DNA of 64,000 nt from a virus. The DNA is taken from IMG/VR virus record IMGVR_UViG_3300026189_001009, positions 32,001 through 96,000 of that record. One strand, 5' to 3'. The position numbers and the translations under genes were made by a program. The notes beneath the pieces are model-generated. The model saw only the letters and a program-made list of their open reading frames with translations. It was not told the origin of the DNA and made no database searches. Shown piece by piece: positions 9,398-46,004 of this stretch (positions are counted from its first letter, which is position 1; each line of letters starts with the position of its first letter).

Positions 9398-9472
9398 GGT
9401 CCCTTCGTCTATCGGTTAGGACAGCGGTTTTTCATACCGCAAAGAGGAGTTCGATTCTCCTAGGGACTACCA
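9398..9472 (+). tRNA. tRNA-Glu(TTC)
   Basis: Acceptor GGTCCCT/AGGGACT, anticodon arm GCGGT-TTTTCAT-ACCGC, TTCGA loop, encoded CCA. Confidence 0.95.
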
Positions 9473-31852: not shown

Positions 31853-32242
31853 ATGAAATTAGATGACTTATTAGCACAATCAAACAAATCAATTGAAATC
31901 ACATTAGAAGATGATCAAGACTTCCATGAAGAGTTTGGTTATTTAGGATATCCAGAAGAAGAAATATGGGAAGCTGAATATCAAGGTAGAAAAGTTCCAT
32001 TAAACAAACCAATGCGTGGTGATGTTAAGAAATTTAAAGTTTATGTAAAAGATCCTAAAACAGGAAATGTTAAAAAAGTAAACTTTGGCCATGGCGGTAC
32101 TAGTGCTAAAAAGGCTGGACAGAAAACAATGAGAATTAAGGTTTCAAATCCAGAACGTAGAAGAAATTTTCGAGCAAGACACAATTGTAAAAACCCAGGA
32201 CCTAAAACAAAAGCAAGGTACTGGAGTTGTAAGGCCTGGTAA
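31853..32242 (+). CDS. Phage protein with acidic leader and basic C-terminal domain
   Basis: EAEYQGRKV...FRARHNC...ARYWSC; TAAATA-5nt-ATG. Confidence 0.72.
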   Translation: MKLDDLLAQSNKSIEITLEDDQDFHEEFGYLGYPEEEIWEAEYQGRKVPLNKPMRGDVKKFKVYVKDPKTGNVKKVNFGHGGTSAKKAGQKTMRIKVSNPERRRNFRARHNCKNPGPKTKARYWSCKAW

Positions 32243-38183: not shown

Positions 38184-38259
38184 GCTGGTGTAGCTCAGTT
38201 GGTAGAGCAACTGATTTGTAATCAGTAGGTCCGCGGTTCGAGTCCGTGCTCCAGCACCA
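38184..38259 (+). tRNA. tRNA-Thr(TGT)
   Basis: Cloverleaf; ACTGA-TTTGTAA-TCAGT; CCA end; one U-U mismatch in the acceptor stem. Confidence 0.95.
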
Positions 38260-38262
38260 CAT

Positions 38263-38338
38263 TCCTCGGTAGCTCAGTTGGTAGAGCAGTTGACTGTTAA
38301 TCAATTGGTCGCAGGTTCGAGTCCTGCCCGAGGAGCCA
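38263..38338 (+). tRNA. tRNA-Asn(GTT)
   Basis: TCCTCGG/CCGAGGA acceptor, CTGTTAA loop, CCA end. Confidence 0.96.
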
Positions 38339-40418: not shown

Positions 40419-40494
40419 GGGGGATTAGCTCAGCCGGGAGAGCGCCTGATTTGCATTCAGGAGGTCAGCGGTTCGATCCCGCTATCCTCCACCA
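40419..40494 (+). tRNA. tRNA-Ala(TGC)
   Basis: G3-U70 pair, CCTGA-TTTGCAT-TCAGG, CCA end. Confidence 0.96.
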
Positions 40495-40509: not shown

Positions 40510-41469
40510 ATGTTTAAAGGAAAATACAATCAAAGTCTGAGTCATCGTATGATGATAGGTGATACGTACAGAACATTGTCCTATCATAGAGCAATCAACC
40601 AACAGGTTAAACCCAACGACATAGTAGTTGACTTTGGTACAGGCAGTGGTATACTAGCACTAATGGCTCTTAGAGCAGGTGCTAAATTTGTTTACTGTGT
40701 TGAAAGAAAACAAGAAGCAAGAAAACTTGCTGAAATAATTTTAACAAAAAACGGATATACCAACTTTAAGATATTTGTCAATCAATATGAGTTGATGGAA
40801 AATGTTAAAAGTGTAGATGTAGTTATCAGCGAATCAGTCGGTGACCATCTGATTGAAAATATGAGCATGAGAATATTTTTAGACTTATGCAATCACTACA
40901 AACCAAGAACAACAATACCTGTACAACTCAGTTTGCACATCTACCCAGAAATAGCCACAAGAGCTAACGCAGGGCTGGAAGCTGTTGAAGACACTGTAGA
41001 TATTGATTTAAGTCCTATCAAAGATGCAGTACTAACAAATCCTTTGTTAGACACAGCTTACTTTGAAGGCAACAAAAATATAGACGACTATTGGCAAATA
41101 GAAAAATTCAATGAGCAACCAGATGCTGGACAAACAATAATTGATTACACAGTGTTTCCATTGAGTTTCAAAACTAATAAATTTACCGATGATGGGTATG
41201 TTAAATTTGAAACACAAGTAAATACAAAAGGTTTATCGGAGTATGGAGTGTTACTATACTGGATAGCTAAACTAACAGATGACATAGCAATTACTAATCA
41301 TCCTAGTAGACAAGCTAACATGAATCATAGTTACTATCAAAGGATAATAAACATACATAATCCTGATAAAGAAAAGATTAACACTATACAAATAATATTG
41401 GATACAGATTTTGATGATGAAGTAAATGAGGATTTACCATGCCAGAATTTAAAAATAAAAGTAAAATAA
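40510..41469 (+). CDS. Protein arginine methyltransferase-like (PRMT-like) enzyme
   Basis: D..R...Y..AI, VVDFGTGSGIL, AGAKFVYCVE, double-E-like loop ISESVG...IE. Confidence 0.75.
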   Translation: MFKGKYNQSLSHRMMIGDTYRTLSYHRAINQQVKPNDIVVDFGTGSGILALMALRAGAKFVYCVERKQEARKLAEIILTKNGYTNFKIFVNQYELMENVKSVDVVISESVGDHLIENMSMRIFLDLCNHYKPRTTIPVQLSLHIYPEIATRANAGLEAVEDTVDIDLSPIKDAVLTNPLLDTAYFEGNKNIDDYWQIEKFNEQPDAGQTIIDYTVFPLSFKTNKFTDDGYVKFETQVNTKGLSEYGVLLYWIAKLTDDIAITNHPSRQANMNHSYYQRIINIHNPDKEKINTIQIILDTDFDDEVNEDLPCQNLKIKVK

Positions 41470-42522: not shown

Positions 42523-43428
42523 ATGATGAATATAAAAACTAATATTACAAAACACTTCTCGCAATTTGGTGTGGTGTTCTTCTGTTTGTTTATGTTTGCG
42601 ACTATGGCACTTACTACTAGTATCTACGCAGATGTAACAAACTCAGGAGCAACTACAAATACACAGACAAACCAATCAGGATCAAATACTACTATTTCAG
42701 GTGGTTATGCATCTGAGAGTACAACTACATACCAGTCAGGATCGTCAAGCAACACGACAGCAACCACAACATCAACTACAAATAATAATTCAACAATACC
42801 AGTCCCCTCCGCAGGTGCTCCTTCAATGAGTGCTTATTCACAAGATGTTTGTGCAGTTGGTAGATCAGGTGGACTACAATTACCAGGCGTAGGTCTATCA
42901 GGTGGTAGTACAGCAAGAGATATGAACTGTGAAAGAATGAAACTGTCAAAACTTTTAAACGATTATGGTATGAAGGTAGCCGCAGTTGCAATTCTTTGTC
43001 AAGATCAACGTGTGTTTGAGGCCATGGAACAGGCCGGAACACCTTGTCCTTTCGAAGGTAAAATTGGTAAAGACGCTAAAGCACAATGGAGCAAGTATGA
43101 CATTGAAAGACCAGACTACGACAAGTATGTTGAAAAAATGGAAGAGCGTTTAGAGATTGATGAGCGTATTATGAAAGAAGAAGGCATACTTGAAGAAAAT
43201 GAAACTTTGAAAACTAACATCAAAGACGTTGCCAAAGAAAATAAAAACCTTGAAAAAGAAATTAAAAAGCTACAAGAAATGCAAATTGAACTGTTAAAGA
43301 AAACAGAAGAAGAAATTAGCAAAGTAGAAACTGTAACAACTGAACCAGTTGTTATCGAAGAGTTACCACCTTTACATCATGAAAAGGACGGTCTGGAGGT
43401 AACTGATGGAAAAAAGTCCCAGGAATAA
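42523..43428 (+). CDS. Exported Cys-containing coiled-coil protein; a -1 frameshift would extend it to 43490
   Basis: Signal peptide, S/T-rich linker, QDVC..NCERMKL..LCQD..GTPCP, coiled coil. Confidence 0.8.
   Translation: MMNIKTNITKHFSQFGVVFFCLFMFATMALTTSIYADVTNSGATTNTQTNQSGSNTTISGGYASESTTTYQSGSSSNTTATTTSTTNNNSTIPVPSAGAPSMSAYSQDVCAVGRSGGLQLPGVGLSGGSTARDMNCERMKLSKLLNDYGMKVAAVAILCQDQRVFEAMEQAGTPCPFEGKIGKDAKAQWSKYDIERPDYDKYVEKMEERLEIDERIMKEEGILEENETLKTNIKDVAKENKNLEKEIKKLQEMQIELLKKTEEEISKVETVTTEPVVIEELPPLHHEKDGLEVTDGKKSQE
43395..43416 (+). other. Candidate programmed -1 ribosomal frameshift signal
   Basis: GGAGG (43395-99), 10-nt spacer, then in-phase A_AAA_AAG (43410-16). Confidence 0.65.
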
Positions 43429-43493
43429 TAAAATACACTAGACCCCTCCTTATGATTGCGGGTCTTCTCTTATTTGGAATAGGAATGTAATTT

Positions 43494-45503
43494 ATGTTAT
43501 CTAAACATATAGTTCGTTCGTTCTTATTTGCATTGGCATTAACAGCCACAACAGCATTTATACAAAACACAGACGTTTATGCAAATCCTACATCAGTAAC
43601 AACCTGTACAGAGAACGCACTTGGCGATCAAACTTGTACAACAGTAACTACCACAACCACGACTACCAACACCCCAGGAACAACTACAGGAAACGTTTTA
43701 TCTAATTCAACATTTGGAACAGGCACAGATCCTAATGAAACAACCACTACGACTGGTTGGAGCGGTGATGGGCATTTACATACTCACCAAATGTTTGGCC
43801 AAAACATGGGTAATCCACAAAGTGGACAAGACATCACAGGTGGTGTTTATGCTTTTGAAGGTGACCCGTCAGATAACGTTTATCAAGATACAGATTTAGT
43901 AGGTGACGGACATTTAACAAAGTCACAAATAAATGAGGGATTTACTTCCACTCAATCAGCAGACATATGGTTTTGGAATAGTCTTAAAAATACTTTAACA
44001 ATAAAACAGACTATCACGGACAGTGATGGCAACGTAACAACTCAAACAAGAGTTATTGTGGACCACGATCCAACTAGAAGCATGAACGGTGGTTCATGGA
44101 GCAACGAAACAAATGTGTACACACACTCATCAAACACAGCCGATGATATCACAATCAGAGCTGAAATGTATAATGAAACAGATGGGACTAGGTATGATCA
44201 CAGTCACTATGGACCAGATGTTGATAACTTTGAGTTATCTATTACCACAGCAGGCGGCACTAGCACTAGTTCAAGTTCAACATCATCAACAGTGGTGACT
44301 CTTTGTGCAGATAGAAATCCGCCAACGTGTACAACAGCTAGTGATGATATTGATGAAGCCACACAACCAATCACAGGTGATGACGGACAATCAATTGATC
44401 AGTCAATCGAAACCATAATTGAAAATGAAGTTATTGATGTTGATGTAAATCCTGTAGTTGAACAAGAAATTTATGTTGTACAAACAGTAATAGAAGTTGA
44501 AGATGATTTTGGTGTAACTGAAGAGCTTACCATACAAGAATTTGTTCAAGACACATTCACAGATATGTTAGAAGAAAATGGATTAGAAGAAGAATTTCAA
44601 GATGCATTAGGTGAAGAAGGTATCACAGAAGAAGAATTTTTTGAAGAACTTGCAAACGAGATGGAAAACGAATTTGCAGAAAGTGGTATGGAAAGTTTCA
44701 CTGATACAAATACAGATGCTTTACCGCCAATAGAAGAAGATACAGCAGTAGAAGAACCAACAGAAAATACAGAAGTTGAAACAGAAACAGTAGTAGAAGA
44801 AACACCTACAGAATCAGAAACAGTAAATACCAGTGATGAAGCAGTAGAGTCAGAAACAGAAACAACTGAAACAAATACTGAACCAGAAAGTACAGAAAGT
44901 GAAACAGATACATCTAGTGAAACATCAGAAGCTGGTAACGAAGAGACAACTACCGAAACCCAAAGCCAAGAGGGTGACACCGAGTCTGAGGAAACAACAT
45001 CAGAGAGCTCTACTGAACAAGAAGAGTCCAGTGGTAATGTGGAGGAGTCAGTGGAGGACGGTGAATCGAACACCGGCGATGAAGAAGCAGGAAATACAGA
45101 CGCGAGTGTTGACGGAGAAGTAGATTCAGAAGTTGGTGAAATTACTAAAAAAGTTGAAAAGATTATTAAAAAATTAACAGCAAAATTAAAAAATCTTGAT
45201 CAAAAATTAAAAGTCATATCAATGGTAACTCAACAAGCAATGATAAATGATCAACCAGATATGTCAGAATATACACAAACACAGTTTTATGACACAAGAA
45301 CAATACCAGATAATCCAGACTGGTATGCAGAAGATACTATATTAAATGCTTATAGTAGATCCATTTACCAAGATAAAACATTAGTAGCTTACCAAAGGAA
45401 TGATCCTATGTTTAAGTATAATGAAGCGGTAAATAAAGTAAACAACACAATCAGCCGATTAGAGGCTGAACTTGAGGTATTAAAAAATGAAAATAATAGA
45501 TAA
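43494..45503 (+). CDS. Large exported protein with a very acidic E/T/S low-complexity region
   Basis: Signal peptide ending VYA, beta-rich domain, acidic tract, C-terminal coiled coil. Confidence 0.8.
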   Translation: MLSKHIVRSFLFALALTATTAFIQNTDVYANPTSVTTCTENALGDQTCTTVTTTTTTTNTPGTTTGNVLSNSTFGTGTDPNETTTTTGWSGDGHLHTHQMFGQNMGNPQSGQDITGGVYAFEGDPSDNVYQDTDLVGDGHLTKSQINEGFTSTQSADIWFWNSLKNTLTIKQTITDSDGNVTTQTRVIVDHDPTRSMNGGSWSNETNVYTHSSNTADDITIRAEMYNETDGTRYDHSHYGPDVDNFELSITTAGGTSTSSSSTSSTVVTLCADRNPPTCTTASDDIDEATQPITGDDGQSIDQSIETIIENEVIDVDVNPVVEQEIYVVQTVIEVEDDFGVTEELTIQEFVQDTFTDMLEENGLEEEFQDALGEEGITEEEFFEELANEMENEFAESGMESFTDTNTDALPPIEEDTAVEEPTENTEVETETVVEETPTESETVNTSDEAVESETETTETNTEPESTESETDTSSETSEAGNEETTTETQSQEGDTESEETTSESSTEQEESSGNVEESVEDGESNTGDEEAGNTDASVDGEVDSEVGEITKKVEKIIKKLTAKLKNLDQKLKVISMVTQQAMINDQPDMSEYTQTQFYDTRTIPDNPDWYAEDTILNAYSRSIYQDKTLVAYQRNDPMFKYNEAVNKVNNTISRLEAELEVLKNENNR

Positions 45504-45882
45504 ACTTACAACTTATGCATCTTTAATTGGCGTGATAGGCGCTATTGGTGGAGGCTTCTATGCTTGGGGTGAGTTCAACACAAGATTATCAGCAATTGAA
45601 AACAAAGACTTTGTTGTTAATGAAACAGTTGATCTTACTGGTGTAAACGATAAAATCGCAAATATCAGAGTAGAAGTAATTGATAGAATCAAAATAATTG
45701 AAGATAAAATGAGTTCAGAATCAGATCAAGGTATAAATGAACTTTGGGCAGACGTAGAAGAACTATGGGCAGAAATGGCTGAAGCACAAAAAGATATCGC
45801 GATCGTAGAAAAAGAAAACGAACTACAAGACTCTAAAATTGAAGCAATAAGATTAAAAGCTACTAATCCACTTGCAAACTAA
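45487..45882 (+). CDS. Membrane-anchored coiled-coil protein
   Basis: N-terminal TM (IGVIGAIGGGFYAWG); ends NPLAN. Confidence 0.75.
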   Translation: MKIIDKLTTYASLIGVIGAIGGGFYAWGEFNTRLSAIENKDFVVNETVDLTGVNDKIANIRVEVIDRIKIIEDKMSSESDQGINELWADVEELWAEMAEAQKDIAIVEKENELQDSKIEAIRLKATNPLAN

Positions 45883-45929: not shown

Positions 45930-46004
45930 GCGGGTGTAGCTCAGTGGTAGAGCGTCTCGTTGCCAACGAGAAGGTCATGGGTTCGAACCCCATTACCCGC
46001 TCCA
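45930..46004 (+). tRNA. tRNA-Gly(GCC)
   Basis: GCGGGTG/TACCCGC acceptor, TCTCG-TTGCCAA-CGAGA, U73 plus CCA. Confidence 0.96.

Follow-up and report, generated by a model that had tools for sequence, protein, structure and literature searches.

Can a phage produce one exported protein in both a soluble and a membrane-held form by letting part of its ribosomes change frame a few codons before the stop? The question is raised by a gene, here called gene A (42523–43428, + strand; 301 amino acids, aa), in a stretch of 64,000 nucleotides (nt) of viral DNA, positions 32,001 to 96,000 of IMG/VR record IMGVR_UViG_3300026189_001009, which we refer to as the window and whose numbering is used throughout. 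The gene ends GGA(43408) AAA AAG TCC CAG GAA TAA and thereby contains the slippery heptamer A_AAA_AAG (43410–43416, + strand) in the X_XXY_YYZ phase, the proposed site of a −1 shift. In the 0 frame, translation terminates at the TAA at 43426–43428 (+ strand) with a short product ending ...DGKKSQE. A shifted ribosome would instead read the tail VPGIIKYTRPLLMIAGLLLFGIGM up to a TAA at 43488–43490 (tail with stop, 43416–43490, + strand), the last 16 codons of which (43440–43487) constitute a conserved hydrophobic module. The original prediction had proposed such a shift and had described the end of the open reading frame (ORF), the phase of the heptamer, the spacing of an upstream GGAGG, the −1 tail, the next ATG, the arms of a hairpin and an 11-aa ORF at 43406; each of these descriptions proved accurate. 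Considering the comparative evidence presented below, we estimate a probability of roughly 80% that the programmed −1 shift at the heptamer is a real and conserved recoding signal.

The slip site in its genomic context

In-phase copies of A_AAA_AAG are not rare in this genome, which is rich in A and in Lys, occurring 10 times in the 20,838 codons of window ORFs of at least 100 aa and 17 times in the 35,553 codons of the whole record. Of the 10 window copies, that in gene A alone has a −1 extension beyond the 0-frame stop, and this extension is hydrophobic, with a mean Kyte–Doolittle value of 2.24 for its best 15-mer. A TGA at 43404–43406, 3 nt ahead of the heptamer, closes the −1 frame on the upstream side, so that the 0 and −1 frames overlap over only 19 nt in the window. 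The evidence from this single sequence exceeds chance only partly.

Conservation of the −1 tail

Relatives of protein A were sampled as the best 80 of 159 in viral contigs and the best 80 of 350 in metagenomes; 78 of the latter were evaluable, two running off their contigs. An in-phase heptamer followed by a −1 tail was found in 12 of the 78 evaluable metagenome loci, with the heptamer 9–15 nt ahead of the 0-frame stop. Together with the window and the Pelagibacter myophage Mosig EXVC030M (locus L001), they form a set of 14 tail-bearing loci, in which the last 16 codons are represented by 12 distinct DNA sequences. In Mosig the site reads GA A_AAA_AAG, again in phase, and the −1 frame continues as VHTGGEHRREINKLWITIPLMLFFGVAF to a stop 3 nt ahead of the next gene, gene C. 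The metagenome tails read VPGLIRSILLVTGLILFGVAF, VQGLDGLLKPLLLVTGLLLFGVAL, ELTILKPLIFLGGLLLFGMVI, GLTILKPLLILGGLLLFGMVI, ELNLIKPLVVIVSLVLFGVAL and GLNLSKALVVITGLLLFGVAL, plus near-copies, and tail length across the set ranges from 21 to 28 aa. Right-aligned on the stop codon, the last 16 codons of all 14 loci can be superimposed without gaps and follow the pattern (K/R)xLxxxxGLxLFGxxx-stop.

The 65-nt spacer between the 0-frame stop and gene C could also be conserved without being translated together with A, either as a non-coding leader or ribosome-binding site of gene C or as an independent mini-ORF. The substitutions, however, track the codons of the tail frame. Pairwise nucleotide differences among the 12 distinct sequences number 450, 154 and 599 at codon positions 1, 2 and 3, and of the codons that differ, a fraction of 0.30 is synonymous in the tail frame compared with 0.12 and 0.01 in the other two. 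The median ratio of nonsynonymous to synonymous substitution rates (NG86 dN/dS) is 0.285 for the 52 usable pairs. The distance from the K or R to the stop is fixed at 16 codons, which likewise speaks against a non-coding spacer. As for a mini-ORF, an ATG at 43452 in the tail frame of the window would give an ORF of 12 aa, but this ORF is not conserved. Across the tail-bearing loci, no ATG, GTG or TTG precedes the middle of the tail in the −1 frame, and the later TTG or GTG codons, where present, are non-conserved and scattered. Moreover, the tail frame differs between loci relative to gene C, and the tail never occurs without the heptamer. The option that GGAGG only initiates the 11-aa ORF at 43406 was not borne out, as this ORF is not conserved: of the 12 distinct sequences, just two, the window and L084, have its ATG.

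The heptamer is invariant and in phase in all 14 tail-bearing loci. The codon ahead of it varies (GGA, GAA or AAA), and so do the 0-frame residues that follow (SQE, SKD, N, D or YIPVENTGGR). The Lys-Lys pair is encoded by AAA-AAG in all 8 lineages, compared with 60 of 290 Lys-Lys pairs (0.207) genome-wide, which corresponds to p ~3e-6 if the lineages are independent; because they share ancestry, this value is indicative only. The comparison indicates that the heptamer is under selection at the nucleotide level. Between 10 and 52 nt are common to the 0 and −1 frames, always with the heptamer among them, and in four of the loci the −1 frame opens exactly there.

A three-frame scan of 246 loci detected a tail-like peptide in 15, namely the 14 loci of the set and the window's own copy (L243); in every case the heptamer lies upstream, and in none is the peptide in frame with A. 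An in-frame tail was likewise found in 0 of 115 homologous protein clusters drawn from a collection of 5.8 billion proteins. Comparison of the protein sequences alone showed that 57 of the 115 clusters end in Lys-Lys plus 1–3 residues, as expected if gene callers halt at the 0-frame stop. These alignments and scans show that the tail evolves as coding sequence and is reachable solely via a shift at the heptamer. The central proposal of the original prediction, namely that slippage by −1 at A_AAA_AAG would give an exported protein a hydrophobic C-terminal tail outside the tail-chaperone context, is thus supported by the homologs, which retain both the in-phase heptamer and the tail, conserve the latter as protein and have no in-frame version of it.

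Homopolymer runs are error-prone, and the broken frame could in principle reflect a sequencing or assembly indel, a concern already voiced in the original prediction, or a recent mutation that turned the gene into a pseudogene. Contigs X3 (43199–43466), X4 (43336–43813) and X6 (43167–43710), which derive from three independent metagenome DNA runs of three studies, bridge 43410–43416 with zero gaps, and the sole indel listed in the kilobase compared with contigs is at 43248, away from the heptamer. The same frame arrangement recurs in 14 loci that come from independent assemblies and include a cultured phage. Taking these data together with the lack of an in-frame version in the 115 clusters and 246 loci, we consider the probability of an error or a pseudogene to be negligible. 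The contigs also contain a C>T variant at 43469 (X3 and X6, also locus L084) that is synonymous in the tail frame, changing CTC to CTT (Leu).

The junction of the tail with gene C

Gene C (43494–45503, + strand) encodes an exported protein of 669 aa with an acidic region, and its ATG is located 3 nt past the tail stop. In all 14 tail-bearing loci the distance from the tail stop to the start of gene C is −4 to +3 nt; for L094 this takes a TTG at −4 as the start, although an ATG at −1 is likelier. The junctions take the form of TAATG, TGATG, ATGA or GTGA overlaps, or of gaps of 0–3 nt. The 0-frame stop lies 52–65 nt upstream of C in these loci. In tail-less relatives, it is the 0-frame stop itself that lies 1–3 nt from the gene C start. 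A stop that abuts the next start is the usual arrangement of translationally coupled genes, implying that ribosomes do arrive at gene C in the tail frame. An origin of the tail as a former N-terminal portion of gene C was discarded, as the two are separated by a stop in every case and their relative frame varies from locus to locus.

The sequence TTTGGA(A/G)T(N)G, which encodes Phe-Gly-x (43476–43487 in the window; alignment columns 101–110), is invariant in 12 of 12 distinct sequences, including its synonymous positions. It precedes the start of gene C by 12–15 nt and resembles a Shine–Dalgarno (SD) sequence, so the motif probably doubles as the ribosome-binding site of gene C. Invariance at synonymous sites is what a non-coding spacer would account for. 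Weighed against the codon-wise pattern of substitutions, the fixed tail length and the scattered start codons, we regard both a spacer and a mini-ORF translated apart from A as highly improbable.

Ribosome or RNA polymerase

The same long protein would be obtained if RNA polymerase added one A within the A-run and the edited mRNA were read normally. The site offers a run of 6–8 A, in which an added A yields an identical protein, and Ebola virus makes its soluble and transmembrane glycoproteins in this way, as the 2016 review by Atkins describes (PMC5009743). The run has 7 A in five of the 14 loci and 8 in three, and a conserved stimulator of ribosomal shifting was not found among the tail-bearing loci. 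In the remaining six loci, however, including the window, there are only 6 A. A bacterial RNA polymerase would hardly slip efficiently on so short a run, since it requires long homopolymers with a threshold of about 8–9 or more. Furthermore, the phase of the heptamer and its terminal G are irrelevant to a polymerase, yet neither varies in any of the 14 loci, although AAA-AAG otherwise accounts for only 21% of Lys-Lys pairs.

The tRNA supply of the probable host also suits the ribosome better than the polymerase. In Pelagibacteraceae single-cell genome G001, tRNA-Lys(UUU) is the sole tRNA-Lys among 29 typed tRNAs, and Lys, Glu and Gln are each served by a single anticodon starting with U. The phage does not supplement this set, as none of the eight tRNA genes of the whole record is a tRNA-Lys. 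The E. coli tRNA-Lys(UUU) reads AAG weakly, which is said to make A_AAA_AAG shift-prone (attributed to Tsuchihashi and Brown, 1992), and a sole tRNA-Lys(UUU) in the likely host fits the ribosomal mechanism. G001 carries a podophage-type relative of gene A (L244) on a 20.6-kb contig and possibly represents an infected cell.

With respect to stimulators, an SD-like GGAGG (43395–43399, + strand) is separated from the heptamer by a 10-nt spacer in the window and may act as one, although its position is not conserved; a motif of this kind lies ~10–11 nt upstream in 5 of the 12 distinct sequences (window, L084, L092, L103 and Mosig). Downstream, Mosig has a 6-bp hairpin 6 nt past the heptamer (z −2.3 to −2.6). 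Folding of the single sequences gave z values of about −3 for L092 and L103, −2 to −2.6 for L101 and Mosig, and insignificant values for the other 8. Downstream structure is not obligatory for A_AAA_AAG sites. Given a shift, most of its probability, in our estimate, goes to the ribosome, and transcriptional slippage as the source of the long protein appears improbable, though less so in the loci with eight A.

Proposed mechanism

We propose that most ribosomes would read GGA AAA AAG and stop three codons further on, releasing the soluble periplasmic form that ends ...DGKKSQE. A fraction would slip by −1 on A_AAA_AAG and read 24 further codons, so that the extension would end in the module of fixed length, consisting of K or R, 15 mostly hydrophobic residues and the stop. 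Most likely, this C-terminal segment would tether the long form to the inner membrane while most of the protein lies in the periplasm, an inner-membrane anchor being the simplest reading of the tail. The original prediction also supposed that the two isoforms would be made in a fixed ratio. The frameshifted ribosomes would terminate at the start of gene C and may thereby couple translation of C to synthesis of the long form.

Because only frameshifted ribosomes terminate on the gene C start, the shift may also meter translation of C to the amount of anchored A. The shift would then do two jobs, converting A from soluble to membrane-held and adjusting exported C to anchored A. We put this forward as a tentative and rather doubtful extension of the scheme.

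Observations that limit the interpretation

Several observations weigh against the proposed shift and the anchor role, the first group concerning how the shift would be stimulated and detected. The SD-like motif lies ~16 nt upstream in 4 of the 12 distinct sequences, is adjacent to the heptamer in 1 and is absent in 2. In the window, no stem-loop or pseudoknot was found 5–9 nt after the site. The hairpin formed by AGACCC (43440–43445) and GGGTCT (43460–43465; whole element 43440–43465, + strand), which the original prediction had noted, begins only 23 nt past the heptamer, and its z value of −0.96 (38 of 200 shuffles fold as well), or −1.16 in a second estimate, is insignificant. RNAalifold returned 0 consensus pairs for the alignment of the 12 distinct sequences; a conserved structure is rejected, and the hairpin finds no support as a stimulator. 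Of the label dnaX-type in the original prediction, the part concerning the heptamer stands, as it is identical and in phase, and the part concerning stimulators is not supported, since the position of the SD-like motif varies and the hairpin is insignificant. The tRNA set of G001 comes from one possibly incomplete single-cell genome that is not a proven host. The sole RNA contig, X15, covers 42919–43237 and stops short of the slip site, on which it is therefore uninformative. In the eight of 14 loci in which the A-run is 7–8 long, RNA polymerase slippage could contribute.

The second group concerns the tail and its distribution. The hydrophobic stretch is short, comprising 15 residues after the K or R, a length that is fixed in the 12 sequences. 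No basic residue follows it, the sole K or R preceding it, which is atypical of a stop-transfer anchor. Part of the conservation of the tail may serve the gene C ribosome-binding site, considering that TTTGGA is invariant at synonymous sites. The device is missing in 66 of the 78 evaluable metagenome loci and was found in 0 of the 80 viral-contig loci, implying that protein A works without a tail in many phages. Parsimony assigns 7 changes to the tail trait, and the well-supported branches of the tree force only 2 of them. Finally, in L087, L088 and L090 an in-phase A_AAT_TTC lies 21 nt before the stop of A, and a non-hydrophobic −1 extension of 30 aa crosses the start of gene C; we take this occurrence as chance, which means that a heptamer alone proves little.

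Distribution of the tail and the tail-less relatives

When 77 distinct A proteins are placed in a tree, the 13 rows with a tail fall into several basal lineages of the myophage clade. Mosig is sister to the rest, and because its branch is long, this placement is uncertain. The distribution fits an old device that was lost repeatedly. A second scan of viral contigs with another query protein, P0080, returned the same contigs and no tail-bearing locus, and a scan of genome contigs for relatives of gene A gave 2 loci only, one podophage-type and one truncated.

The tail-less relatives differ in how gene A ends. About five long myophage-type forms from viral contigs end ...NSAGK, ...LRIPL or ...NMGR, with the ATG of C 2–3 nt further on. 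L095 and L116 share the ...EGFEEKK of L092, which bears a tail, and read on from there in frame to ...TSKFNSAGK; the heptamer is still present in L095, although the −1 frame there closes after a single codon. Judged by these sequences, the two look like a lineage that lost the tail. Large tail-less clades (e.g. L107, L110, L124 and L133) end ...GRVKLTIPVNQR or ...GRVQLRIPL at the point where the frameshift site lies, with alternating hydrophobic and polar residues, and such short endings may be a different C-terminal module with the same purpose.

In the podophage-type relatives L010–L083 (~240 aa), the signal peptide of the next exported protein overlaps the last ~40 nt of A in another frame; in L011, for example, it reads MAAVILFSSAANSQ..., and there is neither spacer nor tail. 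In the podophage Baldr of Pelagibacter (L002), A is followed at 1290–1478, through an ATGA overlap, by a separately annotated 62-aa protein with an N-terminal hydrophobic segment. This protein could correspond to the frameshift tail in stand-alone form. Mosig contains a 39-aa ORF in the +1 frame (L001, 2031–2150; ...NPYDFSNKSK) that resembles an alternative frame of HTVC202P (L003, from 1905; ...NPYNFS...). In both phages this reading overlaps the codons for the signal peptide of gene C, and conservation in that other frame probably explains the 39-aa ORF as a by-product.

Protein A, its neighbours and the virus

The record comprises 123,631 bases. The window has a G+C content of 32–36%, nearly every gene lies on the + strand, and tRNA genes are scattered along it. 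Among named phages, gene A is matched best by Pelagibacter phages, the closest being the myophage Mosig with 61% identity over the conserved part, and on this basis the window is taken to belong to an uncultured pelagimyophage.

Protein A combines a predicted signal peptide, a Thr/Ser-rich linker, a domain with four cysteines and a long helix. It matches the profile of PHROG 20531 (unknown function) with an expect value (E) of 4.1e-15 over residues 39–182. The predicted Sec signal peptide (residues 1–36; 42523–42630, + strand), recognized by eye, has a hydrophobic core ahead of the residues IYA|D. The predicted cleavage site lies between A36 and D37, and these two residues are nearly invariant in an alignment of 41 homologs. 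In that alignment, every protein starts with a hydrophobic leader, followed by a Thr/Ser-rich stretch and then the conserved domain, and four cysteines (C110, C136, C159 and C175) are invariant. An AlphaFold2 model based on the 41 sequences contains helices at 134–219 and 233–271, with a mean predicted local distance difference test score (pLDDT) of only 53.7; the long helix is an addition in the myophage forms. These features are consistent with a protein A that would be exported by Sec and disulfide-bonded in the periplasm.

Sequence searches of Pfam, NCBIfam and the PDB with protein A gave no match, and in the ESM Atlas only viral 'hypothetical protein' clusters matched. A match to an 'endolysin' family in PHROGs (E 0.005) is weak and due to coiled coil, and was disregarded. 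A unimolecular spanin (u-spanin) was considered as well. Such proteins are defined by an N-terminal lipoprotein signal with a lipobox Cys and a C-terminal transmembrane domain, and are encoded in the lysis cassette. No conserved Cys marks the A|D junction where the leader of protein A ends, so a lipobox is absent, and this assignment was rejected. Profile searches of the window proteins identified no endolysin or holin near gene A.

The neighbours of gene A include a PrmA-like methyltransferase, proteins of unknown function, the exported proteins C and D, tRNA genes and a second methyltransferase-like ORF. The PrmA-like protein corresponds to a 319-aa ORF (40510–41469) that matches PrmA and other S-adenosylmethionine (SAM) methyltransferase families, with a best E of 6.9e-11. 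Gene D (45487–45882, + strand; 131 aa), whose product has an N-terminal hydrophobic segment and a coiled coil, is the third member of the A-C-D unit, and this gene order is kept in Mosig. Five tRNA genes, for Glu, Thr, Asn, Ala and Gly, are located in the window at 9398–9472, 38184–38338, 40419–40494 and 45930–46004. There are no tail genes nearby, and gene A is not in the setting of tail assembly chaperones, between the genes for the major tail protein and the tape measure.

Comparison with known systems

Among known systems, E. coli dnaX (tau/gamma) has the identical in-phase A_AAA_AAG; the window also has an SD-like GGAGG 10 nt upstream, and tRNA-Lys(UUU) is the single tRNA-Lys of the likely host. 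The dnaX shift shortens the protein and relies on a stem-loop located downstream. Here, in contrast, the shift would extend the protein, no downstream structure is conserved, and the position of the SD-like motif is not conserved either. Transposases of the IS1 and IS3 families of insertion sequences (IS) use A_AAA_AAG-type heptamers with a narrow overlap of two frames and a longer fusion after the shift, as proposed here. Some IS clusters with an A_AAA_AAG-type motif are without an established stimulator, as discussed in PMC4066793. Gene A differs from these in that it does not belong to a mobile element and that the shift would add a hydrophobic tail of 21–28 residues in place of a catalytic domain.

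In phages, the known programmed frameshifts are found mainly in the genes for tail chaperones and capsid proteins. The tail assembly chaperone of phage lambda (G/GT) likewise involves a conserved −1 shift by which a single gene yields a short protein and one lengthened at its C-terminus, and the frameshift in such chaperones was reportedly the subject of work by Xu, Hendrix and Duda in 2004. Unlike the chaperones, protein A is predicted to be exported, its tail is hydrophobic, and no tail genes surround it. Phage periplasmic proteins with membrane-held and soluble states are represented by the T4 RI antiholin and by signal-arrest-release (SAR) endolysins, in which the transition proceeds by release of an N-terminal signal anchor. 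For protein A, recoding is proposed instead, and no homology to these proteins was detected in Pfam, NCBIfam or the PDB. The closest functional analogue is the editing of the Ebola virus glycoprotein (GP), where slippage on an A-run determines whether a secreted viral protein is made in soluble or in membrane-anchored form (PMC5009743). The Ebola mechanism differs in being transcriptional and in belonging to a virus of eukaryotes with unrelated proteins, whereas a ribosomal one is favoured here. Searches of open-access text on pelagiphages and on frameshifting found no mention of the slip site, and the same applies to searches within PMC8163748 and PMC7029224.

Implications for pelagiphages

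The data point to the use of the classical A_AAA_AAG signal in a different setting, in which it would provide an optional hydrophobic C-terminus for an exported protein of phages that infect SAR11, the most abundant marine bacteria. For annotation, this would mean that gene callers truncate protein A. The locus also offers a natural test of frameshifting in a streamlined host with a minimal tRNA set. Since Mosig and its host are in culture, the prediction is directly testable, and the presence and loss of the tail among close relatives amount to a natural experiment on the purpose of the anchored form. If the shift also meters gene C, it would set the stoichiometry of an envelope complex of long A, C and D. 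On the same doubtful reading, this would be the first switch between soluble and anchored states by recoding to be described in phages or bacteria, equivalent among prokaryotes to the editing of Ebola GP, and such a switch would operate in some of the ocean's most abundant viruses.

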